Source: an uncultured bacterium
GTDB lineage: Bacteria; Patescibacteriota; JACMRA01
Length of the DNA stretch: 64,000 bases
NCBI GenBank assembly: GCA_963704645.1
Contig: OY969926.1
Span: 448,001-512,000 of the forward strand
Direction of reading: 5' to 3'
Position 1 is the first letter of the stretch; each line of letters opens with the position of its first letter. Below the pieces are notes generated by a model, which saw only the letters and a list, made by a program, of their open reading frames with translations, did not search any database and was not told where the DNA came from. The translations under genes were made by a program, and so were the position numbers. Positions 27,780-61,702 of the stretch are shown piece by piece.

Positions 27780-28181
27780 GCCTAATAAATTTCTACAAAC
27801 TTCAAGGCTATTGAAAAGTGAGCTGGCAATTTGGCTACATGGTGTAGGGAAGATGTTTACCATCTTCCATGGAAGGCGAAGGAAAAAGGGGTAGTACACA
27901 AACAAATCCCCGCGCATTCACCCCGATGAATTTATCATTACACTTACTCTAGGTACTTTTTATTGCGAGTTATACTTTTAACCAATCTTTTGCCCAAACC
28001 AAAAAAACAAAATACACTACAACACATAAGCAGAAATTCCATTCTGTCTGTAGTTTAAAGTATATTTAAAAATTAATGGTGTAACCATTAAAAACAAAAC
28101 AAATTGTAGAGGCGAGCCTGTCTCGCCATTAAACGTTAAAACCAGGAATAACAAATTCCAAAAAAACAAAAACAATAAAAT

Positions 28182-31100
28182 ATGTCCCAACCAGGTCAAA
28201 TTAATAATTCTAAAATAAAAAAAGAAGAATCTAAATTAGATAACTCTAAGTTAACAGTATCTAATACAGATAACCATCAAATAGTTAAAAACAATAAACC
28301 TACTATAGCAGAGTATCTTCAATCAAAAAAAGGTAAATATTCTTTAATCTCTCTTCTAGTTCTTTCTGTACTTCTTATCTCAGGATTATTTACATATAAC
28401 CTATTAAAACAAGATTCTGATACAGCCAAAGCAGCAAATACAACAGCAACAGCTTTTAACCCTTCAGACTGTGCAACTTATACATCTAATGGAGGTTACA
28501 GTCAGGCTGGAATTTGCTCTGTAAGATTATATGAAAAAAATGGTCAATTATTTAAACAACTAGATGTTTCAATTGGGGAAATAGTTAATAGTAGACTATA
28601 TTACAACAACACTAGCGCTTCTTCTGCAACTAATGTAAACTTAACAGACTCAAAACCTAATTTCCCTTTGGTAGGAGCAATAACTAACAACTATGTAGAT
28701 GCTGCCCCTGTAACTTTAAACCCTAATATTTTTAACGGAAATACATTTTCTATTGCTCCAGGTGCTGGTTACTTTGGTTATGCAGCAGACAACACAGCAA
28801 CTTCTTCTAACCTAGAGATGGGGAAGAAGAAGTATATTAATGGGGTTGGTTGTGCATATGTTAATGGAGGAGGAAGCTCAGGTTACAATGGATACTCCTT
28901 ATTACAAGGATCGAACAGCCCTCTAACAACAGGTAGCTGTGGAGCTGCAGCTAGTGGATATACACTTAGTTCAAGTTCAGTAGATAGTATAGATATTACA
29001 GGAAAAAGATATTTAAACAGTAAATACTGTCAGTATGATGCTAGCGATGGTAGCTACCGATACACTTACTTTAAAATGTATTCTGCAACTAATGCTACAG
29101 GGGTAACTATGCCTGTATGCGCAAATCCTACAAATGGATATTCTCAAACTGGCGAAATTGCTTACAACGGAGACTTACTTGGAAACAAATTTGTAAATGG
29201 AAAAGAATGTGTAAGTACAAGTACTACTCAAGGTTATAGTACATACCAAATGTTTGCTCCAAGCAATGCAACTGGTGTAGACGGAGCTTGTATTGCTACT
29301 ATTCCTAATTATACTATTAGTGCAGGGTATCTTAATAACGTTGACCTCTCCGACACCTCTCGTGGTTACGGTTACATTGCATACAGTATGCAAGTACCTA
29401 GCGATGCAACACCAGGCACAATTTTTACTTCAACTGCGAGTATCAGTTACGATAATACCTCTGGTGGAATTGACCCATTTCATAGTGGAAATAATACAAT
29501 CACACTAGTTTCAACCCCAACTCCAAACATAACCTACATAAAACTATACTCTGTAGACGGAGGAAGTACATGGAGCCCTACAGTATCTGCTAACCCAGGA
29601 CAATCTGTTTTAGTAAGACTATGGAATGAAAATACAGGAGGATTATCTGCAGCAAGTGCTAACATTAAAGATTCTCTTCCAAATACTTTCACATATGTAG
29701 CAGGATCTGCTAAAAACTGTTTAAACCCAAGTACTACAAACCCAACAACTCCAGACAATACAGAACTAGTTTGTGATACTGGAACAGCTGCAAACAAAGA
29801 TACTTTATTCCAAACATTAACTAATGCTTCTGGTGTTTCACCATCTGCAGGTCTTTATGATGCTGCTGGAACCAGTGTGGCAACAGGAGGCACTGCCTTT
29901 AATGCTACTAGTGGAACTAAGGATATTGGGAAGATGAGGTATCTACATGGTATCAACTGTAGAAATGCACAGCTAGAAGCTCAAACCGTAGATATTGCTG
30001 CTAACAATACATCAACTGCATTTACTAGCTATGATTGTGGGCCAGGTACAAGCGTAGGCTATGTATTCCAATATGATACTGTTCAAAGTGGTAATGGAGA
30101 TATGTTAGGTAAAAGATACTTACATGGTATCAACTGTAGAAATGCACAGCTAGAAGCTCAAACCGTAGATATTGCTGCTAACAATACATCAACTGCATTT
30201 ACTAGCTATGATTGTGGGCCAGGTACAAGCGTAGGCTATGTATTCCAATATGATACTGTTCAAAGTGGTAATGGAGATATGTTAGGTAAAAGATACTTAC
30301 ATGGTATCAACTGTAGAAATGCACAGCTAGAAGCTCAAACCGTAGATATTGCTGCTAACAATACATCAACTGCATTTACTAGCTATGATTGTGGGCCAGG
30401 TACAAGCGTAGGCTATGTATTCCAATATGATACTGTTCAAAGTGGTAATGGAGACCTTCTAGACGCCACCCGCTCTAAATCCTACATCCAATACGAAATG
30501 ATTATTCCAGCAGGCACCGCAGGGGGAAACTATGGAACTCAATCTACAATAGCTTCTACAGCCACAACTCCAGAATTTACATCAGTAAACAGTGGAACTA
30601 ATGGAAGCGGAATTACAGTAACAGGAGATCCAGCCTTTAGTGTTAAAAAGTTATTAGCTCTTCCTACTTCAGGAACTGGAGCATCTGCAGTATGTCCAAC
30701 ATCTACTTCAAGTTATTCAACTACATTATCTAATACACCAGCAGGTTCTACAATATGTGTAAGACTTGCTTACCAGAATAAAACTAGTGGAGCAGTAAGT
30801 AATGCAGCTATTACAGATACACTATCATCAGGATTTACTTACATTAATAATACAACTTCTAATTGTTTAACTCCAGCTACAGGAAATGAACTATGTGCTT
30901 CTGATGCTTCTCAAGCTAATACAGCTTGGACAGGAAATAATGGTTGGACAGGTTCTAACTTTGCTCTTGCTCCTCATGCAGGACTTTATGGTCAACCAAG
31001 CACAGGTGCTAGTAGTGTTATGGAAATGGGGAAGAAGAGGTATGCTTGGACACAAAGTTGCACTCAACAGCCATCTAGCAGTAATCAAGAAGTCTTCATA

Positions 31101-32417
31101 CAAGGATTTACAAATGATAACACCAGTATTCAAGATACATGTTTAAGTACTTTAGGAGGATTTTCAACCAGAACTTCTACAGTAGCTATTCCTACTCTAG
31201 GTAATAGATATTATTGGAGCCAATCATGTATTCAACCAACATCATCTCTTCAAGAGTTATTCATCCAAGGAATAATTAATAGCAATGTTAGTATTACTGA
31301 CACATGTGCCACAACTTTAGGTGCTGGTTCAACAAGAAATTCAAGCGTAGCAATTGATGGATTAGGACAAAGATACTTCTGGACAGAAAGCTGTACTCAA
31401 CCAACATCTTCTCAGTTAGAAATATTTGATCAAGGCTTTACCAACACCCCAGCAGGAATTGCAGATACTTGTGTTTCTACTTTAGGTGCTGGCTCAGTAA
31501 GACAGCTTTCTTTACCATTTGACCTCCTAGACCCAAACAACGGAACAGGCTACATTCAATACAAAATGCTAACCCCAACCAGTCCAACAACAACTTCTGT
31601 AACCCTACCAAACGTAAGCCTAAGCGGAGACAACCAAACAACATCAACTTCGCCTGCTACAATAAACTTTGCCACCTCCCCCCTAACAACAGCAGACATC
31701 CCAGGGTTAACAGTAATCTGTGGAGTAGGAGGAACTCCTGGAACAGTAAGAGTAAACACTACAACAACTTGTACCTTCACTCTTCCTACAAACAAAACAT
31801 TACCAAATAACTTCAAACTAGGAATAGGTAATGCAACCCCTGCAGGAACTTGTACTGTAGGAACAGGAATAAACTCTAGTCTAGTAACTTGTATTAACGT
31901 ACCAACAGGAACACTTCTTGGAACACAACCTATCAACGGACAAATTGGAACTGAAACAATAACACCTACAGGAGAAACAGTAAATGTAATAGATTCACTA
32001 TGTTCCACAACTAACCCATGTGCCCTATTCGAAACAGCACTAACCTACAGCCCAACCCAAGCCCTAGCCAAAAGATATGGAGCTTCTGGTTCTACAAACT
32101 CAGATAACCTAATACTAACTCTAAAAGATACAAGATTAGAACAATCTGGATTTACTACAACATGTTCCATAAAATATAAATTCAGAACAGATACAAGCTA
32201 CAGAACATTAACAACAAACTCTACCTACAATAATACTACAGGATGTACAGGAAACCTTCTTAAAGCAAATCAACTATTATTCAATGTAGACTTTGAAATA
32301 ACTGCAATAACTACAAATACAACTACAAACACTACAAAGAACTATCTAATCTATTCCAACTACGATTTCAAAGCTGGTTCTATTGGAGTTACTTCTATTG
32401 GTGGAAGTGGGTTGTAG
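28182..32417 (+). CDS. Large Cys/Thr-rich surface protein with three DUF11-like modules
   Basis: N-terminal TM; three modules with I(T/K)D(S/T)-type motifs, each holding three GK(K/R)Y..C..C repeats; C-terminus shared with the 36538 gene. Confidence 0.85.
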   Translation: MSQPGQINNSKIKKEESKLDNSKLTVSNTDNHQIVKNNKPTIAEYLQSKKGKYSLISLLVLSVLLISGLFTYNLLKQDSDTAKAANTTATAFNPSDCATYTSNGGYSQAGICSVRLYEKNGQLFKQLDVSIGEIVNSRLYYNNTSASSATNVNLTDSKPNFPLVGAITNNYVDAAPVTLNPNIFNGNTFSIAPGAGYFGYAADNTATSSNLEMGKKKYINGVGCAYVNGGGSSGYNGYSLLQGSNSPLTTGSCGAAASGYTLSSSSVDSIDITGKRYLNSKYCQYDASDGSYRYTYFKMYSATNATGVTMPVCANPTNGYSQTGEIAYNGDLLGNKFVNGKECVSTSTTQGYSTYQMFAPSNATGVDGACIATIPNYTISAGYLNNVDLSDTSRGYGYIAYSMQVPSDATPGTIFTSTASISYDNTSGGIDPFHSGNNTITLVSTPTPNITYIKLYSVDGGSTWSPTVSANPGQSVLVRLWNENTGGLSAASANIKDSLPNTFTYVAGSAKNCLNPSTTNPTTPDNTELVCDTGTAANKDTLFQTLTNASGVSPSAGLYDAAGTSVATGGTAFNATSGTKDIGKMRYLHGINCRNAQLEAQTVDIAANNTSTAFTSYDCGPGTSVGYVFQYDTVQSGNGDMLGKRYLHGINCRNAQLEAQTVDIAANNTSTAFTSYDCGPGTSVGYVFQYDTVQSGNGDMLGKRYLHGINCRNAQLEAQTVDIAANNTSTAFTSYDCGPGTSVGYVFQYDTVQSGNGDLLDATRSKSYIQYEMIIPAGTAGGNYGTQSTIASTATTPEFTSVNSGTNGSGITVTGDPAFSVKKLLALPTSGTGASAVCPTSTSSYSTTLSNTPAGSTICVRLAYQNKTSGAVSNAAITDTLSSGFTYINNTTSNCLTPATGNELCASDASQANTAWTGNNGWTGSNFALAPHAGLYGQPSTGASSVMEMGKKRYAWTQSCTQQPSSSNQEVFIQGFTNDNTSIQDTCLSTLGGFSTRTSTVAIPTLGNRYYWSQSCIQPTSSLQELFIQGIINSNVSITDTCATTLGAGSTRNSSVAIDGLGQRYFWTESCTQPTSSQLEIFDQGFTNTPAGIADTCVSTLGAGSVRQLSLPFDLLDPNNGTGYIQYKMLTPTSPTTTSVTLPNVSLSGDNQTTSTSPATINFATSPLTTADIPGLTVICGVGGTPGTVRVNTTTTCTFTLPTNKTLPNNFKLGIGNATPAGTCTVGTGINSSLVTCINVPTGTLLGTQPINGQIGTETITPTGETVNVIDSLCSTTNPCALFETALTYSPTQALAKRYGASGSTNSDNLILTLKDTRLEQSGFTTTCSIKYKFRTDTSYRTLTTNSTYNNTTGCTGNLLKANQLLFNVDFEITAITTNTTTNTTKNYLIYSNYDFKAGSIGVTSIGGSGL
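29944..30454 (+). repeat. 177-bp coding tandem repeat, about 2.9 identical copies
   Basis: Copies start at 29944, 30121 and 30298. Confidence 0.97.
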
Positions 32418-32446
32418 GGGTTAATCATTGAAATTCACAACACTAT

Positions 32447-32556
32447 GTAGGGGAGATGCTTGTCATCTCCCAGGGGTAAGGGGATGGGGAGTGGACTTTA
32501 GTATGGGAATACTTTAACTCAACAACACCAAGTAGGGGAGATGCTTGTCGCCTCCC
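32447..32556 (+). repeat. Pair of GTAG-type REP-like palindromes
   Basis: GTAG-GGGAGATG-cttgt-CATCTCCC and a variant; also at 38976 and 39061, with relatives at 27844 and 28106. Confidence 0.65.
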
Positions 32557-32649
32557 ACTTGGGGTGTGACAAGGAAATAGAGAAAAACAAAATCAAATAC
32601 ATAAAGTCTTAATCCCGCATTCCAAAACTACCCTCAAACCTTGCGGCGC

Positions 32650-32736
32650 TACCCCCAAGCCTTTGGCTTGACCCCTTCGGGCAAACATGTCGGTTGAAAC
32701 AAGTTCAACCTGCGCCAGTTTACTTACCAGGGGTAC
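32650..32736 (+). repeat. Structured element of about 85 nt
   Basis: Hairpins CAAGC/GCTTG and GGTTGAA/TTCAACC; identical at 39179-39265 and diverged at 36308-36387. Confidence 0.75.
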
Positions 32737-32917
32737 TTTCAGCCAAGTTTACTCTAATTGTGTTATACTTCTAACCAAACACAGCTCCCTTTATTGGGGG
32801 TTTTGGTTTGTCTTTTTTATACAAATCTTTTGTCTTAACTTTTGAAACAAAGAAATTAATGGTGAAATTAAGCAAATTATCTTTGACAACCAAACCAACT
32901 GAGCTAAAAGTTTAGTA

Positions 32918-34375
32918 ATGGAAAAGAATAGCCAAAATTCTATAAAAGTACCAAAAGCTAAATCTAAAATTGTAGGTCAAATTGAAAATAATGTTAAGCA
33001 GGAAATTATTCCCGTATCGCAAAGTTTGGTAATTGGAGATGTTGGCAGCGGTAAAACTGCTGTGGCTTTTATGGTTGGTTTAAACTACTTACTTGGCCTT
33101 CCTGGTGCCGAAGTTGCTTTGTTGGCGCCAACTGAAGTACTGGCATTTCAGCATTACAATAATTTAGTTGAGTGGGTAGAGAGAATGGGATTAGTTAGTA
33201 ATGCCAATTTTGATAAAGAAGCGAAAGATAAACCTCCTTCCAAAAATGAAAAAAATATTCTTCAGGCAAATAGTTTAAAGAATGAAAGTAATTACATAAC
33301 AACAGTTTTTGCTTCGGCTAAAGACATTCGCATTAATAATGTAAAAGTTAGTAAAAAACAGTTAGACTTGGAAATTAAAAATTACAGTAAAATTTTTTGG
33401 GTTGGAACCCATGCTTTGTTGTTTAAAAATTCTATCAAGCCAGACTTGGTTATGGTTGATGAACAGCACCGATTTGGAGTAAGTCAACGTCAATCTTTAA
33501 ATTCTAAAAATAAAAATGGAAGCCTTGAAGAAAAAAATTTAACTGGTAAAAACAACGAAAATTTGGCCAGCCATTTTGTTTCCTTTACAGCAACTCCAAT
33601 TCCCAGAACGCTATCTTTAACTTTACTAGATACACTTCAGCCACATTTCTTGCAACCAATTCGTGCTAAGCAAATTACAACCACTGTTCTACCCTTCGAA
33701 AATTTCGACGAAAAAATTGTACCAGCAATAACTTCTCATTTGGTTAAAAATAGAAAGGTTTTTTTAATCGTTCCAAAAATTGAGGAAGACGAAACTGATC
33801 AGCTTTGGAATGTTTCCAAATTAAATACCTGGGCTGAAAAATATTTTCCCCAAAAGGTAATGCAAGTACATGGAAAAGTTAAAGACAAAAGTGCAGTGTT
33901 GAAAGAATTTGCTAGTTCCAATCAGTTCCAAATTTTGGTTTCAACTACGGTTATTGAAGTTGGGGTAGACATTGTTGAAGCTTCTTTGATGGTTGTTTTT
34001 AATTCAGAGCGGTTTGGATTGGCTGCATTGCATCAGTTGCGTGGGCGTGTAGGGAGAAATAAATATACCGATAATCAATGTATTTTACTTACTAATAATT
34101 ATTCGGTAAATAAGCCGCGTTTGCAGTTTCTAACAACCAGCTTAGATGGTTATGAAATAGCCGAAAAAGATTTACAACTTCGTGGCAGCGGTGATATAAT
34201 TGGTAAGCAACAATCTGGTTTTTTAGATGAAATTGAAGATGTGGTTGGTTTAGACACATCTATTTATGAAGATATGAAAAATTTTGTAGATGACTTAGAC
34301 TGGCCAGATTTAAAATCTCTTCCACGTTTAAAAAACTATTTAGAAAAAACAGTACAAGAAATCTGGCAAGAGTAG
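32918..34375 (+). CDS. recG: RecG helicase core lacking the N-terminal wedge region
   Basis: GDVGSGKT, DEQHRFGV, TATPIPRTL, LHQLRGRVGR and DLQLRGSGD. Confidence 0.88.
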   Translation: MEKNSQNSIKVPKAKSKIVGQIENNVKQEIIPVSQSLVIGDVGSGKTAVAFMVGLNYLLGLPGAEVALLAPTEVLAFQHYNNLVEWVERMGLVSNANFDKEAKDKPPSKNEKNILQANSLKNESNYITTVFASAKDIRINNVKVSKKQLDLEIKNYSKIFWVGTHALLFKNSIKPDLVMVDEQHRFGVSQRQSLNSKNKNGSLEEKNLTGKNNENLASHFVSFTATPIPRTLSLTLLDTLQPHFLQPIRAKQITTTVLPFENFDEKIVPAITSHLVKNRKVFLIVPKIEEDETDQLWNVSKLNTWAEKYFPQKVMQVHGKVKDKSAVLKEFASSNQFQILVSTTVIEVGVDIVEASLMVVFNSERFGLAALHQLRGRVGRNKYTDNQCILLTNNYSVNKPRLQFLTTSLDGYEIAEKDLQLRGSGDIIGKQQSGFLDEIEDVVGLDTSIYEDMKNFVDDLDWPDLKSLPRLKNYLEKTVQEIWQE

Positions 34376-34726
34376 AGTATATTTCAGATTAATATTTTAA
34401 TTACAAACTAAGTCTAAATGTTTTTGCATTTAATTTCTAGGTATGCTAAACACAATTTGTGAGTTAATGAACGAAAACTAAGAGATAAAATAATCTGTTT
34501 AGATTTTTGTGTTTGTGGTGTATAATATTTTAACTTTAAAACAATTTTAGAAACTATGTGTTCATATTTTGTACTTAAATTAGAGTATTTTTTACGTTAA
34601 AATGTGTATCTATTGTACATTCAGAATAATTTGTACATTAAAATTGGCAAAGTAATAAATAATTTTAAGATTAAATAATACTTAGTAATTTACTAAGTTA
34701 CAAACCAGTATAATTTGGAGAAACAG

Positions 34727-35233
34727 ATGTCTAAATCAATTATTATTGTAGAAGACAATCTAGAATATGTAGAAGCCCTGAAAGCCACATTGGAAAACTA
34801 TGGCACTATATTTACACCTAGAATTTTATCAGGTTATGCTGCTGCTGTAGAATTTTTGGCTGAAATTTGTGAAATCGTTGACAGGGCAATTGAACATAAT
34901 TTTGAGACAATTATTTTATTGGATCATTTTCTGTTTGGGCAAAGCCAACATCCATACTGCGGAGGTCAGATTCACCGCTGGGTTATGTGGCATTTTGGAA
35001 GGACGAATCCAGAATACGGAATAAAATTCATATCAATTTCGTCTGCAACCCAAATGGCTCAGCTTAATTATATGAATATGGATGGTCTTGAACCGAACGT
35101 AAACTATTCATCAATCCCGCATTTCTCTGAAAAAGCAAACTTATGTTCTTACTTTGGTATACTTGAAGAAGGCGATCCTGAGTTGGAAAAACATAATTCA
35201 GCTTTAAAAAAGATTGTTAGCTTGTTCAATTAG
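34727..35233 (+). CDS. Stand-alone receiver-domain-like protein
   Basis: IIIVEDN, ILLDH and ISISS; GGAG precedes ATG 34727. Confidence 0.6.
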   Translation: MSKSIIIVEDNLEYVEALKATLENYGTIFTPRILSGYAAAVEFLAEICEIVDRAIEHNFETIILLDHFLFGQSQHPYCGGQIHRWVMWHFGRTNPEYGIKFISISSATQMAQLNYMNMDGLEPNVNYSSIPHFSEKANLCSYFGILEEGDPELEKHNSALKKIVSLFN

Positions 35234-35357
35234 GCATTAGTCTATAGCTCTAAGCTAAACCCAACCCCACCTTGGCCTTCCTTGGTGGTTTATTTTTGTA
35301 AAATGAAGCCTTGTTAACATTCTTCATAATCTGTTTTTTGAATAGTTAAAAACCAAA

Positions 35358-36113
35358 TTACCTACTATTCCAAACCATTATAAATACACCTTTTAAAAAT
35401 TCTGCCATGGTTTTGTTTCGTATTTCAAAAGCTCTTGTATTAACCGTGTCCCATAAAATTATAACATCATTTATAATCCAAAAAGAACCCATTTTGTTAA
35501 ACTCCACTGGCAAAAATCTCCAATCTCTTAAATATTCTTCTTTAATATTATTTATGTTAAAATATGAATTATTGTGGGTTGCTAAAATAAGCGATGAAAT
35601 ATTCTTCTTAATTCTTTTTGGTAGCCAAATATTTGACCAATAGTTGATATCTATAATTTCTATAAAATCGTTGCCCTCGCCAAAACTGTGTATAGTTGAG
35701 TTTGGTGTTGTTGTTTCTAATATACTATTAAACAAAAGCAAAAACTTATCCTTGCCAGTGTAGGTTTTAAACACGGGCTCATTGTATCCATACCAGTTGG
35801 TTAATATTTCTGGTAAAAATTCTTGAAAATCTGAAACAGCTTTGTTACTTTGATATTGTTTTTGTTGAAGCAGGCTTAGTACAATATTTGGATTAGTTAT
35901 TAAAAAACCTTCTTTGTTCCTTTCAACAGATTCTAGCAAACCCAACTTGGCTAATTGATCTAAAGTTCTATAAACAAAAATTCTATTTGTACCTAATTTT
36001 CGGCAAATTTCTGAAATTGTAATTCTTTTATCTAGTAAAATAGTTTCGTAAACTTGTGCTTGTTTTTGATTTAAATTTAGTTCTAATAATATTTTAGAAA
36101 ATTGTGTGTTCAT
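35358..36113 (-). CDS. TrmB-family HTH transcriptional regulator
   Basis: N-terminal wHTH (VYRTLDQLAKLGL); C-terminal RIKKNI...IINDVI effector-like domain. Confidence 0.85.
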   Translation of the reverse strand: MNTQFSKILLELNLNQKQAQVYETILLDKRITISEICRKLGTNRIFVYRTLDQLAKLGLLESVERNKEGFLITNPNIVLSLLQQKQYQSNKAVSDFQEFLPEILTNWYGYNEPVFKTYTGKDKFLLLFNSILETTTPNSTIHSFGEGNDFIEIIDINYWSNIWLPKRIKKNISSLILATHNNSYFNINNIKEEYLRDWRFLPVEFNKMGSFWIINDVIILWDTVNTRAFEIRNKTMAEFLKGVFIMVWNSR

Positions 36114-36307
36114 ATTCCGTACAGATTGTAACTATAAAAAACTCTTACTGTAAATAATTTTAAGAATAGTATAACAAATTACGAACACCAAAATTGTTTA
36201 GGTTAAAAGTTCACCCTTTGGGTTTGTATATTTTTTATTTTATCTTGAAATTTTCTATCTAAAACATCGGTGGCTAAAACTGGACTAGAGTTTGCATATG
36301 TTTCTAA

Positions 36308-36387
36308 CCCCAAGCATTCGGCTTGACCCCTTCTGGCGAACATGTTGGTTGAAACAAGTTTAACCTGCACTAGTTTAATTGCCAGGT
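36308..36387 (+). repeat. Diverged copy of the structured 85-nt element
   Basis: CCCCAAGCattcGGCTTGACCCCTTC...GGTTGAAACAAGTTtAACCTGC. Confidence 0.75.
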
Positions 36388-36537
36388 ATGCTCAATCATA
36401 TCTCCTACAATTTAGTTAGACTTTTACCTTATTTAATATGGTTTTTGGTTTATTTATACTTCCCATAAATCAATATCCAATCCCCTTTGCCTAAACCTAA
36501 AAAACAAAATACAATAGAACAAAACCAAAACAAAAAT

Positions 36538-38946
36538 ATGAATCAAAAACCATCTTTAATAAAAGGTAATATTCTAAAATCATTCCTTCAATCTAAAAAA
36601 GGACAATATTCTTTATTCTCTTTATTAACACTTTCTGTATTATTAATATCTGGATTATATACATTTAGTTTATTAAAACAAAATAATATAGACACAGCCT
36701 TAGCAGGTTTAAATTGTCCTGCTAATTTTACTTTGGTAAATGGTAATTGCCAATATAATGCCACACCTAACACTTCACTGTCTTGTCCGCAAGGTGGAAC
36801 TGTAAATGGTACAAATTGTACATACAATGCTGTTCAAGGATCTGGTCAGTATTCTTGCCCACAAGGAGGGGCTTTAAATGGTCAGCAGTGTAGCTACAAT
36901 GCTACGCCTCAAGCTATAGGAGGCACTTGTCCGCAAGGAGGTGTGATTGTAGACTCATCTCCTGGTTCAAATATATATACAATCTTTTCACAGTATATCA
37001 ATGGTCCTTTTGGAGGGGCGATAAATATTCAAGGATCTCAAGCTTGTCTTGTTGATCGGGGACAGACATTCTCTAGTGATCCTTGTGTTGGCTATAACAA
37101 CTCATCAGTTAATGGCTTTGCGTGGGTTGCAGTTAGTAATAGATTCTGTTATTCTTCTCCATTTCCATCAAGCGCATCTTTCACTTGCGATAAGGGCGGT
37201 ATTTTAGGTACAGATAATAATTGCTATGCTTATAGTTCTGGGGCACCATATTCAAATACTTGGTGTCCATCAGGGTGGTCGAACTACAATACTAACGTTG
37301 CATTCGCAGGGTGTATAAAAAGCCCGAGTCAAACCCCATCAAATCAAGTAACCCAAACTTGTCCATCTGGTGGCTCTGCTGTTGGTTCAATATGCTATTA
37401 CAATGCAACCTTAAGCCCAGGAGCATATAGTTGTCCACTAGGAGGAAGCTTGTCTGGAACGACTTGTTCTTACCCAGCCACTTCAACTACATCTAGCTAT
37501 TTTTGTCCAAATGGAGGCAATGTTAGCGGCACTGTTTGTTTAGCCAATTCAGGCACAACCTACACCCCAGAACCAGGCCAAATCACAGGTCTAACCTGTA
37601 CACCTTCTAGCGTTGTAGCCTCAGGAACAGTAAACTGTAGCGGACAAGCCACAGGAGCACCAAGTGGAGTACCTTATGCAGGAAACATTACAGTAACAAT
37701 AGACAACGGAGGAGGAAGTATAACAACTACAATAAACCCAGACGGAACTTTCACAGCTTCTTCAGTACCAGTAGGAACAACCACAGGAACTAAAGCAGCT
37801 ACAACTAACTTAGGAGGAACAACTTCTATTACAGTTACAGCAGCTTCTATCACAGTAGACCCAGACCTAGCTTCAGGCCCAGGAAGTTTATCTAACTCTA
37901 CAGATTGTACAAGTGCAAAGAACGTAACTATTGGAACTGTCTACACTTGTTCTTTCCCAATCAACGGAACAGGCCCATTTGTATTACCAGCAGGAGGAAT
38001 ACAAGCTAGAACCAATCAAAGTGCAAACAACTCTACCCCAGTAAACACATGTACCATTGCAGCTTCAGTATTAACCTGTACAGGAATAACAACAGTAGGA
38101 ACACCAAGTACATTAATAGCAGGAACTGGTAATGTACAATTAGGTAAGGGAACAACTCCAGCTACTTGGAACACTAAGGGAGTAGTTACCTTGGTAGCTG
38201 CCACCTCCCCCCTAACCACAACCGACATCCCTTCCCTTACAGTAACATGTGGAGTAGGAGGAACTCCTGGAACAGTAAGAGTAAACACTACAACAACTTG
38301 TACCTTCACTCTTCCTACAAACAAAACATTACCAAATAACTTCAAACTAGGAATAGGTAATGCAACCCCTGCAGGAACTTGTACTGTAGGAACAGGAATA
38401 AACTCTAGTCTAGTAACTTGTATTAACGTACCAACAGGAACACTTCTTGGAACACAACCTATTAACGGACAAATAGGAACTGAAACAATAACACCTACAG
38501 GAGAAACAGTAAATGTAATAGATTCACTATGTTCCACAACTAACCCATGTGCCCTATTCGAAACAGCACTAACCTACAGCCCAACCCAAGCCCTAGCCAA
38601 AAGATATGGAGCTTCTGGTTCTACAAACTCAGATAACCTAATACTAACTCTAAAAGATACAAGATTAGAACAATCTGGATTTACTACAACATGTTCCATA
38701 AAATATAAATTCAGAACAGATACAAGCTACAGAACATTAACAACAAACTCTACCTACAATAATACTACAGGATGTACAGGAAACCTTCTTAAAGCAAATC
38801 AACTATTATTCAATGTAGACTTTGAAATAACTGCAATAACTACAAATACAACTACAAACACTACAAAGAACTATCTAATCTATTCCAACTACGATTTCAA
38901 AGCTGGTTCTATTGGAGTTACTTCTATTGGTGGAAGTGGGTTGTAG
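36538..38946 (+). CDS. Cys-rich surface protein with CPxGG repeats
   Basis: Leader similar to the 28182 gene; CPxGG..C.Y.A repeats; last 232 aa identical to the 28182 gene; ORF is open from TTG 36487. Confidence 0.85.
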   Translation: MNQKPSLIKGNILKSFLQSKKGQYSLFSLLTLSVLLISGLYTFSLLKQNNIDTALAGLNCPANFTLVNGNCQYNATPNTSLSCPQGGTVNGTNCTYNAVQGSGQYSCPQGGALNGQQCSYNATPQAIGGTCPQGGVIVDSSPGSNIYTIFSQYINGPFGGAINIQGSQACLVDRGQTFSSDPCVGYNNSSVNGFAWVAVSNRFCYSSPFPSSASFTCDKGGILGTDNNCYAYSSGAPYSNTWCPSGWSNYNTNVAFAGCIKSPSQTPSNQVTQTCPSGGSAVGSICYYNATLSPGAYSCPLGGSLSGTTCSYPATSTTSSYFCPNGGNVSGTVCLANSGTTYTPEPGQITGLTCTPSSVVASGTVNCSGQATGAPSGVPYAGNITVTIDNGGGSITTTINPDGTFTASSVPVGTTTGTKAATTNLGGTTSITVTAASITVDPDLASGPGSLSNSTDCTSAKNVTIGTVYTCSFPINGTGPFVLPAGGIQARTNQSANNSTPVNTCTIAASVLTCTGITTVGTPSTLIAGTGNVQLGKGTTPATWNTKGVVTLVAATSPLTTTDIPSLTVTCGVGGTPGTVRVNTTTTCTFTLPTNKTLPNNFKLGIGNATPAGTCTVGTGINSSLVTCINVPTGTLLGTQPINGQIGTETITPTGETVNVIDSLCSTTNPCALFETALTYSPTQALAKRYGASGSTNSDNLILTLKDTRLEQSGFTTTCSIKYKFRTDTSYRTLTTNSTYNNTTGCTGNLLKANQLLFNVDFEITAITTNTTTNTTKNYLIYSNYDFKAGSIGVTSIGGSGL

Positions 38947-39272
38947 GGGTTAATCATTGAAATTCACAACACTATGTAGGGGAGATGCTTGTCATCTCCC
39001 AGGGGTAAGGGGATGGGGAGTGGACTTTAGTATGGGAATACTTTAACTCAACAACACCAAGTAGGGGAGATGCTTGTCGCCTCCCACTTGGGGTGTGACA
39101 AGGAAATAGAGAAAAACAAAATCAAATACATAAAGTCTTAATCCCGCATTCCAAAACTACCCTCAAACCTTGCGGCGCTACCCCCAAGCCTTTGGCTTGA
39201 CCCCTTCGGGCAAACATGTCGGTTGAAACAAGTTCAACCTGCGCCAGTTTACTTACCAGGGGTACTTTCAGC
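38248..39272 (+). repeat. 1025-bp direct repeat, copy 2
   Basis: Offset 6529 bp from copy 1. Confidence 0.97.
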
Positions 39273-47251: not shown

Positions 47252-48586
47252 ATGTTTAATTCTCCAAAAAACTTTTTGAAAGTCCCTTTCTATTCTATAG
47301 TGATTTTCACATTAGGTATTCTTTCACTTTTTACTCTAACACCTGAAGTTAACGCTCAATCCCAAGTATCTCTGTATCCTGGGCAAGTAGGGGTTTTCAC
47401 TTTGAAATATATTAACGCTGGAGACAGTGATGCAATAGCAAGCGCAGTAACTACAGTTTCACTTAACGATAAGTTAGAATACGTTCCTGGGTTTTTAACT
47501 GAAACTTTTGGTGGAGGTGCTACCAACTGTATTGCTGACGCTGTAGGAGGAGGAATTATAACTACTAGCGGATCTGCAACTAATATTTCTTATAGACCAA
47601 GGTCTGCAACTACTACAGCCGCCCCTTGTGGTGGTTCTGGAAGTGCTGGCGCGTCTACAATCACTGCAGCTCCTGAAGCTACTCCTGGAGATCAAGCTAC
47701 ATGGCCAGCCGCAAAGACAGGTGTAATTACATTTAGAGCTAGATTGAAAGACAACCAAAACTTAAATGCAGGAGATGTAGTAAATTTCGCAATTATCGGT
47801 GAAACCACTTTAGATGGAGGATCGGGTGGAGCAGCCTCTTTAAGAATAGGAGTTTTAGCAGTGCCAACTACTCCATTAGTTACAGCAGACATTCTTGGTT
47901 TAACCGTTACTTGCGCTTCCGCTCAAATTAATTCAACTACAACTTGTAATTTTACTCTACCTGATGGCAAAACTCTTCCTTCAGATATGACTTTTAGTAT
48001 TGGAAACTCTACAACCCAGGGTAATGCTTGTACAGCTAGTGGTGCAGCAGTTACTTGTACAGGGGTCCCAACCGGGTCTTTACCAGGTCAACAAATTATA
48101 TTCGGTAAAATTGGCTCTGACGCTAAAACAGATACAGGTGAAAAAGTAAACATTTTAACAGTTCCTCTTACTCCATTAGTTACAGTAGACATTCCTGGTT
48201 TAACCGTAACTTGCGCATCCGCTCAAATTAATTCAACTACAACTTGTAACTTTACTTTACCTGATGGGAAAAGCCTTCCTTCAGATATGACTTTTAGTGT
48301 AGGAAATTCTACAACACAAAGTAATCCTTGTACAGCAAATGGTACTGCAGTTACTTGTACTGGTGTGCCAACTGGATCTTTACCAGGTCAACAAATTATA
48401 TTTGGTAAAATTGGCTCTGACGCTAAAACAGATACAGGTGAAAAAGTAAACATTTTAACAGTTCCTGTTGTTCTTCCAAGAACTGGTGGTGAAGGATATA
48501 TATTACTTGGAGTAATAGGTATTTCTGGTCTTATTGCTGGTAGTTTATTTGCAATCTCAAGAAAGAAGAAAGTTAAAGTAAATTAA
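47252..48586 (+). CDS. Surface protein with LPxTG sorting signal
   Basis: Signal peptide; two 100-aa Cys repeats (300-bp period, 47870-48466); LPRTG, TM and RKKK tail. Confidence 0.85.
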   Translation: MFNSPKNFLKVPFYSIVIFTLGILSLFTLTPEVNAQSQVSLYPGQVGVFTLKYINAGDSDAIASAVTTVSLNDKLEYVPGFLTETFGGGATNCIADAVGGGIITTSGSATNISYRPRSATTTAAPCGGSGSAGASTITAAPEATPGDQATWPAAKTGVITFRARLKDNQNLNAGDVVNFAIIGETTLDGGSGGAASLRIGVLAVPTTPLVTADILGLTVTCASAQINSTTTCNFTLPDGKTLPSDMTFSIGNSTTQGNACTASGAAVTCTGVPTGSLPGQQIIFGKIGSDAKTDTGEKVNILTVPLTPLVTVDIPGLTVTCASAQINSTTTCNFTLPDGKSLPSDMTFSVGNSTTQSNPCTANGTAVTCTGVPTGSLPGQQIIFGKIGSDAKTDTGEKVNILTVPVVLPRTGGEGYILLGVIGISGLIAGSLFAISRKKKVKVN

Positions 48587-54520: not shown

Positions 54521-54639
54521 ACACCGGTTTTGGCCTATTTTCCCCAGTCTCTGCAGACTAGTATCATCAGCGTAAATGCGTTTCAAGACTCTGTTCGGAA
54601 TGTGAAGAGTTGGTGCCACACCACTTGAAAAACCGATGT
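54521..54639 (-). rRNA. rrf: 5S rRNA, stand-alone
   Basis: 119 nt; terminal helix ACATCGGTTTT/AAAACCGGTGT; CATTCCGAAC loop C; GATGATACT...GGGAAAATAGG loop E. Confidence 0.9.
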
Positions 54640-58940: not shown

Positions 58941-59041
58941 ACTAAGCCCAAATTATTCTAAATAATAGGTACTGTCAAATAGTAAGGCTGAATGAATAAT
59001 TTTTGACATTAGGCTTTAAGCAAGGTATCATACTGGTAAAC

Positions 59042-61702
59042 ATGGATGATTTATATCAAAACAGTAATCAAAATAACCAAAGCGTTATATTAGCAACAAA
59101 CAACAGCAACAACACTACTTCTTTGTTTAGTGCTTTTGATGGTTTGGGGAGTTTTCTTTACACCAGTTTTATAGTCTTGTCTGTAATTTTGGCTCTGGCA
59201 GTATTGGCTAAAGTTGCTGTAAATTTGTATAGGAAAAATTATTATAATAAGAAAAAGCTTTCTGACTGGAAAGAAACTGTCTTTCTAGAAATTACTGTTC
59301 CACAAGAGTCAGCAGAGCAAGTTCAAAAAGATCAGGGCAGTAAAAAAGAAGATAAAGATAGTATTGCGGTGGGCGAGCAAATGTTTTTAGTTATGAATGA
59401 ATTTGCCAAGACAAAGTGGAAAAATTATTTTTTTGGCACAGAGCGTTTCAGTTTAGAAATAGTTAATATAGATTCTGAAATTAGATTTTGGATGGCGTGT
59501 AGTAAAAAAACTGTGGGATTGTTAGAGAGGCAAATAGTTTCAGTTTACCCTAAAGCCTCTATTAATAAATTAGATAATGTGGATTTTTTTAAGGAAGGAA
59601 GTGTAGCTTACAGTCAGGAACTAGATTTAGCTAATAGGTTTGAACTGCCTTTCAGAACTTATAGAATGATGGAAACTGATGCCTTAAATTCGCTTACCAA
59701 TGTAATGAGTAATTTAGGTAAACAGGAATCTGCTGCTATTCAGCTAATTTTAACGCCTGTTAAAAACTCTTGGCAGAAAAAGCCTGGTGTTTTAGCTTCT
59801 AGAATTCAACAAGGTCAAAATCCTAATGAAGTTTTAAATCCTAAAAAAGATAGAACTAAAATTATTAAAGGTATATTTAAATTTTTATTTGATAGTTTTA
59901 AACCCGATAAAAAAGATAATCACAATAATCAAGATAAAAAAGAAAGAAAAATAGATTTATCAGGAAAAGAAATGGAATTAAGATTAACTCCGCAACAACA
60001 GGAAATAATTAAGAAACTTGAAGAAAAAGCATCTAGACCTGGGTTTAATTTTACTCTAAGAGTTGTTGCTTCTGCAGAAAATGATATTAGAGCTAAGCAA
60101 ATTGTAGATCAAATTGTTCCTGCTTTCCAAACTTTTGAAATAAATCCGTTCAACGGTTTTAAAAGGGTTAAATCTGATTCTAAAGAAAGTGTGCTTAACT
60201 TTTTAATGCGAGCACCTAACTTCAATAGTAAGAATATTATTAATACAGAAGAAGTTAACAGTTTGTGGCATTTACCTAATTTTCTGGTTCAAACCCCTGA
60301 TATTAGATGGCTGCTTGCAAGAAAACCAGCAATACCATTAATTGTTCCTGGCCCTGGCCCTGGAAATGTAATGTTGGGAACAGCTAAGGCTCGTGGGCAG
60401 TCTAAAGACATTTATATGAAGATGGAAGATAGGTTTAGACACATTTACGCTTTGGGAGGGTCTGGTTCTGGAAAAACTTATTTAATGGCCAATGTAATTG
60501 CCCAAGATATGCAGCTTGGTAACGGAGTTTGTGTTGTAGATCCGCATGGTGAACTTATTGATGATATTTTGAAAAGGGTTCCACCAGAAAGAGCTGATGA
60601 TGTAATAGTTTTCTCTCCTGCTTACACCGATAGACCTCTGGGCTTAAACATGTTGCAAACTGATCCGCTGAAGCCAACACAAAAAACTTTAGTAATAGAA
60701 ACTTTGTTTAATATTTGGGACAAACTATACGATTTGAAGAAAACTGGCGGTCCGATGTTTGAAAGCTACATGAAAAATTCAATGCGTTTGGTAATGAGTC
60801 ATGTTGAAAGTGGATCAACTTTGATGGAAATTCCTAAAGTTCTTTCCGATGAAGATTTTAGAACCTTCAAGTTAGCAATGTGCGATGATCAGGAAGTGGT
60901 AGATTTTTGGGAAAAGGAAGCCACAAAAGCAGGGGGTGAGGCCAGTCTTGAAAATATGGTTCCTTATATTACTTCTAAACTTGCACCTTTTACAACTAAC
61001 GACTTTTTAAGGCCTATGATTGGGCAGCAAAATAGCTGTATTAATTTTAGAGAAGCAATGGATAATAAGAAAATTATTTTGGTTAGTCTTGCTAAGGGTT
61101 TGATTGGCGAAAATTCTGCTTACTTGGTGGGTATGGTTATGATTGGAGGTTTGTTGATGGCAGGAATGGGTAGAAATGATGGTTTGAAGTATAATTTAGA
61201 TGGAACCACAACTGAAATTGAAAGTAAAGATAGAACTCCATTTTTCGTGTATATCGATGAAATGCAGAACTTTTTGTTTGACTCTATTCCAAAAGCTTTA
61301 GAAGAAATTCGTAAGTATAAAGTAGGATTTTATTTAGCTCATCAATTTGTAAAACAATTGGTTGTAGATGGTAATGAGAGAATTAAAGATTCCATAATGG
61401 CTAACTGTGCCACCAAGTTTATATACAGAGTAGGTGCAGATGACGCTGGCTATTTAGAAAAAGAATTTGGCCCAACATTAACAGCCCCAGATTTAATTAA
61501 CCCTGAAGCCAGAACCGCTAATGCTATATTATTGGTTGATGGCCAAAAAACTACACCCTTCAACTTTTTACCTAGTAAGTGGCCTGAAGGAAATAACCAG
61601 GAGCTTAGAAGACAAATTATTGAAAATACCAAACAAAAATACGGCAAGCCTAAAGAAGAAGTAGAAAAAGAAATTAGAGATAGAGCTAAGCTTTTGTTTT
61701 AG
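59042..61702 (+). CDS. VirD4/TraG-like (HerA/FtsK superfamily) membrane ATPase
   Basis: DRFRH, GGSGSGKT, DPHG, YIDEMQNF, EIRKY and AHQF. Confidence 0.88.
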   Translation: MDDLYQNSNQNNQSVILATNNSNNTTSLFSAFDGLGSFLYTSFIVLSVILALAVLAKVAVNLYRKNYYNKKKLSDWKETVFLEITVPQESAEQVQKDQGSKKEDKDSIAVGEQMFLVMNEFAKTKWKNYFFGTERFSLEIVNIDSEIRFWMACSKKTVGLLERQIVSVYPKASINKLDNVDFFKEGSVAYSQELDLANRFELPFRTYRMMETDALNSLTNVMSNLGKQESAAIQLILTPVKNSWQKKPGVLASRIQQGQNPNEVLNPKKDRTKIIKGIFKFLFDSFKPDKKDNHNNQDKKERKIDLSGKEMELRLTPQQQEIIKKLEEKASRPGFNFTLRVVASAENDIRAKQIVDQIVPAFQTFEINPFNGFKRVKSDSKESVLNFLMRAPNFNSKNIINTEEVNSLWHLPNFLVQTPDIRWLLARKPAIPLIVPGPGPGNVMLGTAKARGQSKDIYMKMEDRFRHIYALGGSGSGKTYLMANVIAQDMQLGNGVCVVDPHGELIDDILKRVPPERADDVIVFSPAYTDRPLGLNMLQTDPLKPTQKTLVIETLFNIWDKLYDLKKTGGPMFESYMKNSMRLVMSHVESGSTLMEIPKVLSDEDFRTFKLAMCDDQEVVDFWEKEATKAGGEASLENMVPYITSKLAPFTTNDFLRPMIGQQNSCINFREAMDNKKIILVSLAKGLIGENSAYLVGMVMIGGLLMAGMGRNDGLKYNLDGTTTEIESKDRTPFFVYIDEMQNFLFDSIPKALEEIRKYKVGFYLAHQFVKQLVVDGNERIKDSIMANCATKFIYRVGADDAGYLEKEFGPTLTAPDLINPEARTANAILLVDGQKTTPFNFLPSKWPEGNNQELRRQIIENTKQKYGKPKEEVEKEIRDRAKLLF

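Follow-up and report, generated by a model that had tools for sequence, protein, structure and literature searches.

Dispersed paralogs for outer-surface proteins, homogenised by gene conversion between loci, are known from Neisseria (opa) and Helicobacter pylori (Hop, with babA-babB); there, the products are outer-membrane beta-barrels of diderm cells, with expression switched through simple repeats. A second arrangement, that of Neisseria pilE/pilS, Borrelia vlsE and Anaplasma msp2, has one expression site and needs silent, promoterless partial copies. The Mycoplasma families (vsp, vlp, vsa, Vpma, vlhA) encode lipoproteins, and either site-specific inversion beside a recombinase or promoter repeats do the switching. 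Finally, the Gram-positive MSCRAMM layout comprises a signal peptide, a variable region, Ig-like repeats and LPXTG. The family described here belongs to a Patescibacteria (CPR) bacterium that, judging from its genes, probably has a monoderm-type envelope with sortases: two sortases were found in the genome, and searches of it for Omp85 and LpxC gave no match. Relatives of its RpoC bear the labels Patescibacteria group or Gracilibacteria. A search of a limited body of literature listed no paper on such a family in this phylum.

The locus lies in a window of 64,000 nucleotides, the whole stretch of DNA that was analysed and the one to which coordinates refer; it contains two family genes on the plus strand, A (28182–32417, 1411 aa, with a class-1 head) and B (36538–38946, 802 aa from its ATG, with a class-2, Cys-rich head). 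Offset comparison confirmed that the two share a block of 1025 nt, so that window positions 31719–32743 (copy 1, plus strand) equal 38248–39272 (copy 2, plus strand) at an offset of 6529 nt with two mismatches; these, at 31934 and 31946, are both in third-codon positions and synonymous. The block consists of 696 coding nt, the stop codon and 326 nt 3' of the stop, and the C-terminal 232 residues of the two proteins show no differences; given its length and identity, a chance origin of the repeat is impossible. The sharp junction described in the sequence-only reading stood as regards a common 17-mer, GCCACCTCCCCCCTAAC, at 31671–31687 and 38200–38216; about 31 nt of patchy identity then precede the perfect block. 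Similarly, the leader LQSKKGxYSL...LLISGL...DTAxA is present in both A and B, and the constant 5' part proposed for them holds as protein-level likeness (~70% over 37–43 aa) but not as near-identical DNA.

The middles of the two genes are unrelated, as first read: the translations contain DUF11-type repeats in A and CPxGG repeats in B. The DUF11-type profile TIGR01451 matched A in three stretches (E 4.7e-8, 32.9 bits vs a cut-off of 24) and did not match B; a Pfam search of A matched nothing. The export leader of A (28323–28433, plus strand), with SKKG, a hydrophobic stretch and DTAKA, was judged by eye to be a signal peptide, and the same type of leader recurs in the LPXTG paralog J; farther on, a repeat search placed three tandem 177-nt repeats (29937–30467, plus strand) in the head. 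As for B, the TTG at 36487, earlier taken as its start, opens the first hexamer of a promoter-like motif; the likely start is the ATG at 36538, which gives 802 aa and agrees with the database gene call P0003. Profile searches bore out the two genes reported between A and B: a RecG-like helicase of 485 aa (32918–34375, plus strand), a bystander between the repeats, and a TrmB-family regulator (35358–36113, minus strand, E 3.2e-8), divergent from B. In a second genome of the same genus (G001), a RecG-like gene and an A-like gene are on one contig, 13 kb apart, their other neighbours being unmatched.

Rather than two copies only, the search of the genome, a single contig of 1.27 Mb, returned 13 dispersed family genes; they are located from 476 to 1131 kb, flanked by ordinary single-copy genes, and total 43,770 nt (3.4% of the genome). 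The A/B block matches 11 places in the genome at 84–100% identity over at least 450 nt. The reading frame is open in all 13 genes, though that of K may be split; all 13 heads are variable, nine members have the leader in common, and 12 have the same C-terminal domain (CTD). The thirteenth, J, combines the leader with Ig repeats and ends with LPRTGG, a TM helix and a basic tail. Members follow the MSCRAMM order of parts, and J truly ends in an LPXTG signal, as does a related 444-aa protein (47252–48586, plus strand) in which two Ig-like repeats are followed by an LPXTG sortase anchor replacing the CTD; the signal is confined to these two proteins. Unlike MSCRAMMs, A, B and ten others have the new CTD where the sortase signal would be, and A and B, ending in ...SIGGSGL and lacking a C-terminal helix, do not qualify as LPXTG sortase substrates. 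The proteins are presumably exported and placed at the cell surface. Regarding the heads, class-1 members A, E, H, I and L have several blocks in common at 82–97%, and the heads of classes 1, 2 and 3 are mutually unalignable; by sequence comparison, there are at least three old, otherwise unannotated classes. Pfam searches on eight other members gave sub-threshold matches only (CBM_14, SdrD_B, SpaA), and no strain of the same species is represented in the protein database, where the clusters to which family proteins belong have one member, from one contig.

Nine of the 13 genes are preceded by a promoter-like motif, TTGCCY-N17-TACAMT, with a spacer of 17 nt in all nine; on the plus strand, it reads TTGCCC and TACACT for A (27990–28018), and TTGCCT and TACAAT for B (36487–36515). 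Only its conservation within the family defines the motif; a generic promoter scan found 37 sites vs 37.5 expected, with no excess over chance. Past the stop codon, a family-specific hairpin (GGGGAGAT...ATCTCCC, repeat family D3) lies at 32447–32471 in A and 38976–39000 in B (both plus strand), and 12 of its 13 occurrences genome-wide are directly downstream of family genes; an imperfect second copy is within 32508–32557 of the A 3'UTR. D4, a structured non-coding element of 83 nt, lies at 32649–32731 (A) and 39178–39260 (B), with a further copy (87%) upstream of B at 36304–36386, all on the plus strand. Just past the A/B block is a terminator-like hairpin with a T run (32783–32802, plus strand), within a stretch common to A and copies I, K and L. 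Rfam, at the gathering threshold and over the whole window, matched tRNAs and 5S rRNA only, leaving the 3'UTR hairpins and the 83-nt element unmatched; the 3'UTR folded somewhat better than shuffled versions (z -2.6).

In A, an Ig-like beta-sandwich repeat (31674–31988, plus strand, modelled with a pLDDT of 85.5) precedes the CTD, which spans 142 aa (31989–32414, plus strand) as delimited by sequence comparison and models. The models of the tail are confident (pLDDT values of 85.5 and 79.6) except over the last ~12 residues; these are disordered, and the six aligned G001 copies do not differ in them. No relative of the CTD was found in Pfam, NCBIfam or solved structures, the best solved sequence having an E value of 0.29; the domain is rare: among 1.84 billion representatives, a search hit 110 clusters, of which 29 reach it (best match extending to query residue 219 or beyond). 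The module ends at most nine residues from the protein C-terminus in all 29, and many relatives have the Ig-like repeat alone. Assigning a function from the fold was tried and abandoned: Foldseek against the PDB returned generic Ig, FnIII and cytokine-receptor sandwiches (best CTD match E 8e-3, TM at most 0.42), with a WxL-interacting protein at rank 8 (TM 0.23), and no function was drawn from them; the ESM Atlas search gave no usable match.

Regarding oligomerisation, the tail was predicted as a homodimer with a score of 0.71, against 0.01 for the best of three controls; among proteins of solved structure, 20 of 30 one-chain pairs and one of 23 single chains attained the mark, counts that are approximate here since an alignment of our own was used. 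The runs agreed in at least 48% of contacts, with a partner pLDDT of at least 83, and the predicted interface involves the conserved stretches NPCALFE, NVDFE and YLIYSNYD; since the domain has no solved sequence relative, the prediction is unlikely to have passed through memorised structures. For the tail, predicted to homodimerise, the most likely role is that of a docking or pairing module common to the members and situated at the cell-proximal end of the protein.

CTD identity is 88–100% among 11 copies of this genome (G000) and 72–96% among six copies of G001, but 61–73% between the two; the four CTDs of G003, from another genus, are 32–53% identical to each other, so that homogenisation is no inherent property of this domain. 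G001 has heads of class 1, class 2 and the C type, at 34–54% identity to those of G000. The tails cluster by genome: a branch with 99/100 support parts the 11 G000 tails from those of G001, and C and L022 form the only pair grouping across genomes (99/95). C resembles its G001 counterpart from end to end (54%), but the two have different neighbours; with neighbours unmatched, orthology is based on similarity, not position. On these comparisons, the head classes predate the two species.

Several signs of recombination are seen in the family. Both the 5' and the 3' limits of the identical stretches vary by copy, reaching from 0 to ~460 nt beyond the stop codon, and in a 375-nt core with 14 variable sites, all four gametes occur at nine of the 36 site pairs that are informative. 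Gene L is a mosaic of I (1–597, 99.8%), an E-like part (93.6%) and I again (98.6%), a swapped middle cassette being the sole difference between I and L. B and G have 1513 nt in common at 99.7%; F and M have 3450 nt at 99.9%, and the 5' parts ahead of this stretch align in ~70% patches only. The constant-variable-constant family shaped by recombination thus survives from the sequence-only reading, with 13 members, differing breakpoints and the I/L swap; the case that would have refuted it, two static copies and no more, does not hold. The strongest signal is tail homogenisation across old head classes rather than heads moved onto one fixed base.

The reading that we prefer, with a probability of about three in four, is that of a 13-gene exported family whose tails are homogenised by repeated inter-locus gene conversion, that is, concerted evolution. 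A typical member would be made, in order, of a promoter-like motif, a Sec-type leader, a variable head, one or more Ig-like repeats, the 142-aa CTD (a predicted beta-sandwich whose flexible tail is conserved) and, last, a structured 3'UTR. Homologous recombination between loci, presumably dependent on RecA, which was found in the genome, would copy the 3' module among members, with the 1025-nt identity as a recent conversion tract; repeated copying would keep 11 tails 88–100% identical as the heads stay different, and the same conversion may occasionally replace head cassettes. Pairing of the tails, if real, would give a selection reason for interchangeable copies; a dimer or anchor role for the tail is putative, as are the adhesin function and the host attachment proposed in the sequence-only reading.

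Programmed high-frequency surface variation, by head shuffling or copy switching for attachment specificity or phage escape in the manner of classical antigenic variation, is an unlikely alternative that draws on some of the same observations: the mosaic structure with its clean I/L cassette swap, nine loci with one promoter-like motif and leader, and 3.4% of a 1.27-Mb genome devoted to the family, besides short A runs within or close to the leaders, namely an A8 at codons 3–5 of H, I and L and an A9 upstream of M, the latter among only seven A/T runs of at least 9 in the genome. However, blastn of the 13 genes against the genome detected no promoterless or partial cassettes outside the family ORFs, the exceptions being upstream extensions and an N-terminal piece of K. 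The window had been read as free of reverse transcriptase and recombinase, and this extends well past it: PF00078 (reverse transcriptase) has no match genome-wide, and only one tyrosine recombinase and one serine recombinase were matched, both far outside, at 884 kb and 74 kb, and neither beside family genes. A diversity-generating retroelement fails both for want of a reverse transcriptase and for a variable part that is not C-terminal, and a shufflon of the vsa/Vpma type finds neither an adjacent recombinase nor inverted sites in 26–42 kb, where no inverted repeats of at least 40 nt occur. Phase variation by simple repeats does not fit either: promoter spacers are all 17 nt, no homopolymer exceeds 9 nt, and the longest runs are A8 and A9 in a genome with 166 A/T runs of at least 8. 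Reads of one barely informative run contained no variants or joints.

An assembly artefact, in which the assembler or polisher collapsed or duplicated repeats or heads were put on wrong tails, is very improbable. Assembly is difficult for repeats of 1–3.4 kb at 99–100% identity, contigs of the short-read genome G001 terminate inside family genes, and some head-tail joins of the single-contig genome could be wrong; still, the ORFs are open (with K possibly split), single-base differences among the copies, some private and some shared, form a reticulate pattern, ordinary single-copy genes lie on either side, and the family is present in the independent assembly G001 and in G003 as well. The stretch occurs in one public DNA run (share 0.16) and in no RNA run; in that run (X1), a contig over the block had a depth of 10.6 vs 2.7–4.9 for unique pieces, and 42 small, low-depth contigs could be placed, 26 of them at at least 99%, with no joints. 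A loose end at 38251 resembles a sequencing adapter.

That the genes are simply young duplicates, through birth and death with no gene conversion, is likewise very improbable: the class-1 blocks of A, E, H, I and L at 82–97% could reflect recent expansion, and such duplication could explain part of the similarity, yet head classes that cannot be aligned, 1 and 2 of them also in the sister genome, bear tails 92–100% identical, each pair of copies has its own tract ends, the four-gamete test fails at nine of 36 site pairs, and it would itself take recombination to join a duplicated 3' end with an unrelated gene.

Among known systems, the concerted family resembles opa/Hop, with complete, scattered genes, nine of them under their own promoter-like motif, conserved ends, variable middles, mosaic blocks and phylogenetic signs of homologous exchange between loci. 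Unlike opa/Hop, it resides in a monoderm-like cell, its constant part is a soluble C-terminal beta-sandwich plus 3'UTR, and no switch repeat was found. With pilE/pilS, vlsE and msp2 it has in common mosaic surface proteins arising through gene conversion, but no silent copies were found outside the 13 full genes. Like the Mycoplasma families (papers on which include PMC2268961 and PMC6258824), it is a surface multigene family with a common leader that takes up a sizeable part of a reduced, host-dependent genome; their switching features were not found in it. The Trypanosoma cruzi MASP family (PMC2691823) is alike in layout only, being eukaryotic, unrelated in sequence and different in its constant ends.

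In conclusion, the family is a well-resolved bacterial case of concerted evolution limited to one module of a multidomain protein. It is conceivable, if unlikely, that a CPR episymbiont operates a surface-diversity system driven by recombination, in which thirteen expression-ready genes trade heads and the tails stay identical because they pair, allowing mixed dimers of different heads on a common dock; if true, host attachment or phage evasion could draw on a combinatorial repertoire despite the tiny genome. With its orphan heads and its tail, which is homogenised and probably pairs with itself, the family is a concrete candidate for what varies at the interface through which CPR/Patescibacteria recognise and hold their hosts.

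Genes A (28182-32417, 1411 aa) and B share a near-identical 3' block. Window positions 31719-32743 and 38248-39272, at an offset of 6529 nt, are the same over 1025 nt save for positions 31934 and 31946, both third-codon positions. The two proteins have identical last 232 residues, encoded by 696 nt of the block, which then runs through the stop codon and a further 326 nt. It is preceded by a 17-mer, GCCACCTCCCCCCTAAC, common to A (31671-31687) and B (38200-38216), and then by ~31 nt of patchy identity. The sequence-only reading had described this block as shared by two genes: the block is real, as were its two synonymous changes, but the family is much larger and has 13 members, A to M. The genome is a single contig of 1,272,640 nt, of which the window is bases 448001-512000, and the genome search for more copies that this reading had proposed matched the block at 11 places, each time over 450 nt or more and with 84-100% identity.

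A six-frame ORF search of the genome found 12 proteins ending in the same 142-aa C-terminal domain (CTD); the thirteenth member, J, shares the leader and the Ig-like repeats, but its C-terminus consists of LPRTGG, then a hydrophobic helix, then a basic tail. The 13 genes are spread over 476-1131 kb among ordinary housekeeping genes and total 43,770 nt, 3.4% of the genome; near-identical fragments of them were not found elsewhere in it. By their variable heads they group into A, E, H, I and L; B, D, G and J; F and M, more loosely with K; and C alone. Gene K (genome 971957-977687, minus strand) may be split, with a 179-aa leader-bearing ORF lying 115 nt upstream, in another frame, of a 1691-aa body.

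As for the two genes in the window, neither matched Pfam; the modules read as DUF11-like in A do match DUF11-type repeats, alongside three 177-nt tandem repeats, and the CPxGG repeats claimed for B are present in its translation. The start assigned to B, TTG at 36487, did not hold: it is the first hexamer of TTGCCY-17 nt-TACAMT, a promoter-like motif found ahead of nine of the 13 family genes, and B most likely starts at ATG 36538, which gives a protein of 802 aa, in agreement with the database gene call P0003. Between A and B lie a RecG-like helicase, a 172-aa ORF and a regulator divergent from B, which is of the TrmB family as had been proposed; rpoC is upstream of A. The RecG-like protein (32918-34375, plus strand) has only 485 aa, and Pfam recognised its helicase core and RecG C-terminal domain and not an N-terminal domain. 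Each family copy also has, antisense inside the constant block, an ORF of 150-173 aa (31556-32008 and 38016-38537, both minus strand); it is probably not a gene but a side effect of the repeat. Elsewhere in the window, an 899-aa protein (59003-61702, plus strand) carries domains of type IV secretion coupling proteins (T4SS-DNA_transf, TrwB, TraG-D_C), and a 5S rRNA gene (54522-54637, minus strand) appears unlinked from 23S and 16S, since neither was found in the 64 kb at the Rfam gathering threshold.

In the 326 nt downstream of the stop codon, a hairpin (GGGGAGAT-loop-ATCTCCC) occurs twice, the second time imperfectly, together with a structured 83-nt element. The hairpin occurs 13 times in the genome, 12 of them just downstream of family genes; the sole copy not adjoining one is at genome 1026692-1026716 (plus strand), outside the window. 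The 83-nt element, with two small hairpins within a closing helix, matched no Rfam family; its copies, some long and some short, mostly neighbour family genes, and 10 of the 13 strict matches to its core are within 250 nt of one. Its copies in the window are at 32649-32731, 39178-39260 and, upstream of B and with 87% identity, 36304-36386; others occur genome-wide. A terminator-like hairpin (32783-32802) lies just past the A/B block, in sequence still common to A, I, K and L. Because the shared stretch includes these 3' elements, the unit copied would be the tail together with its 3'UTR.

Regarding the history of the tails, the CTD was searched in 41 genomes, this one and 40 relatives: it matched 12 times here, eight times in the same-genus genome G001 and four times, at about 30% identity, in G003, a genome of another genus, and was not found in the other 38. 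Within this genome, 11 copies of the CTD are 88-100% identical to one another, and six G001 copies 72-96%, against 61-73% between the genomes. The heads have counterparts across the genomes: G001 has class-1 heads resembling A, E and H (34-36% identity) and class-2 heads resembling J and G (50-53%), besides a C-type gene with 54% identity over its full length. Both genomes carry the head classes, which are therefore older than the divergence of the two species. A 99/100 branch of the maximum-likelihood tree divides all 11 tails of this genome from those of G001, regardless of head class; the only cross-genome pair is C with its G001 counterpart L022 (99/95), and the CTD of C, 61-65% identical to its own paralogs, is closest to L022 (70%). 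Taken together, old head classes and tails divided by genome would require homogenisation within each genome. Since the four G003 tails are just 32-53% alike, homogenisation would be a property of this genus, not of the domain.

An alignment of 11 gene ends indicated that the tracts have varied limits. Near-identity begins at the 17-mer (B, D, G, H), at the CTD start (E, I, L, K) or ~40 nt further in (F, M), and it stops at the stop codon (D), after the first hairpin (E, K), ~160 nt on (F, G), 326 nt past (A/B) or ~400-460 nt past (A, I, L). A 375-nt core has 14 variable sites, 10 of them synonymous, and nine of its 36 informative site pairs have all four combinations. When each gene was painted by its best paralog, mosaicism was extensive. 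B has its closest relative overall in G, not in A; the two match at 99.7% across 1513 nt but have different middle cassettes. F and M have 3450 nt in common at 99.9%, with 5' parts that align in patches only, at ~70%. I and L agree at 99.8% across 597 nt and at 98.6% across their final 589 nt, around unrelated middles of ~500 nt, and the middle cassette of L is 93.6% identical to gene E. With mosaicism this extensive and tract ends this varied, the A/B block is one recent conversion tract among many.

As for the mechanism, none of the findings indicates a dedicated switch. The window has neither recombinase nor reverse transcriptase, as had been noted; in the whole genome no reverse transcriptase was found, and the single tyrosine and single serine recombinase matches are at 884 kb and 74 kb. 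In 26-42 kb of the window no inverted repeats of at least 40 nt flank the genes, the promoter spacer is 17 nt in all nine motif-bearing genes, and homopolymers are no longer than A8 and A9, A/T runs of at least 8 numbering 166 in the genome; the A9 tract, 21 nt upstream of gene M (region of genome 1125277), is one of seven A/T runs of at least 9. On these grounds, and with RecA encoded in the genome, ordinary homologous recombination, which would copy tracts between paralogs, is the most economical mechanism.

Regarding the cell envelope, the nearest named relatives of RpoC are annotated "Patescibacteria group bacterium", with a partial Gracilibacteria protein at 61% identity; the genome carries two sortases and, at an estimated completeness of 87%, has no match to Omp85 or LpxC, features that indicate a CPR bacterium and an envelope of the monoderm type. 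A 444-aa protein in the window (47252-48586, plus strand) has a signal-like N-terminus, two of the family Ig-like repeats (45-47% identity) and an LPXTG wall anchor (PF00746, E 3.2e-6), and is a sortase-anchored cousin of the family. In this protein and in J the sortase signal directly follows the same Ig repeat, and the class-2 leader of J has 89-97% DNA identity with D and G; this sharing of leader and repeat suggests that the leader acts as a cleaved signal peptide, with the CTD in the cell-proximal position held in J by the wall anchor.

A confident 248-aa model of the constant module (pLDDT 85.5) predicts two beta-sandwiches, and the CTD alone gave a pLDDT of 79.6 and a pTM of 0.74; its last ~12 residues are disordered in the model, yet identical in all six aligned G001 copies. 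Fold searches returned generic Ig/FnIII matches only, and no solved sequence relative of the CTD was found (best E 0.29). Among 1.84 billion representatives, 110 clusters match the module, mostly its Ig-like repeat alone; in 29 of them the best match reaches at least query residue 219, always ending within nine residues of the protein C-terminus. The predicted two-copy complex scored 0.71 (best of three controls, 0.01). Among proteins solved as pairs of one chain, 20 of 30 attained the mark, and among those solved as single chains, one of 23; the counts are rough because our own alignment was used. Agreement in contacts between runs is at least 48%, partner pLDDT is at least 83, and the predicted interface is formed by the conserved NPCALFE, NVDFE and YLIYSNYD stretches. 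This modelling supports, rather than shows, a symmetric CTD homodimer.

A tail obliged to pair with paralog tails, or to dock to one common partner, would account for conversion being tolerated or favoured there. With a constant domain undescribed so far, the family is a lineage-restricted case of a known kind, that of surface paralog families shaped by gene conversion.
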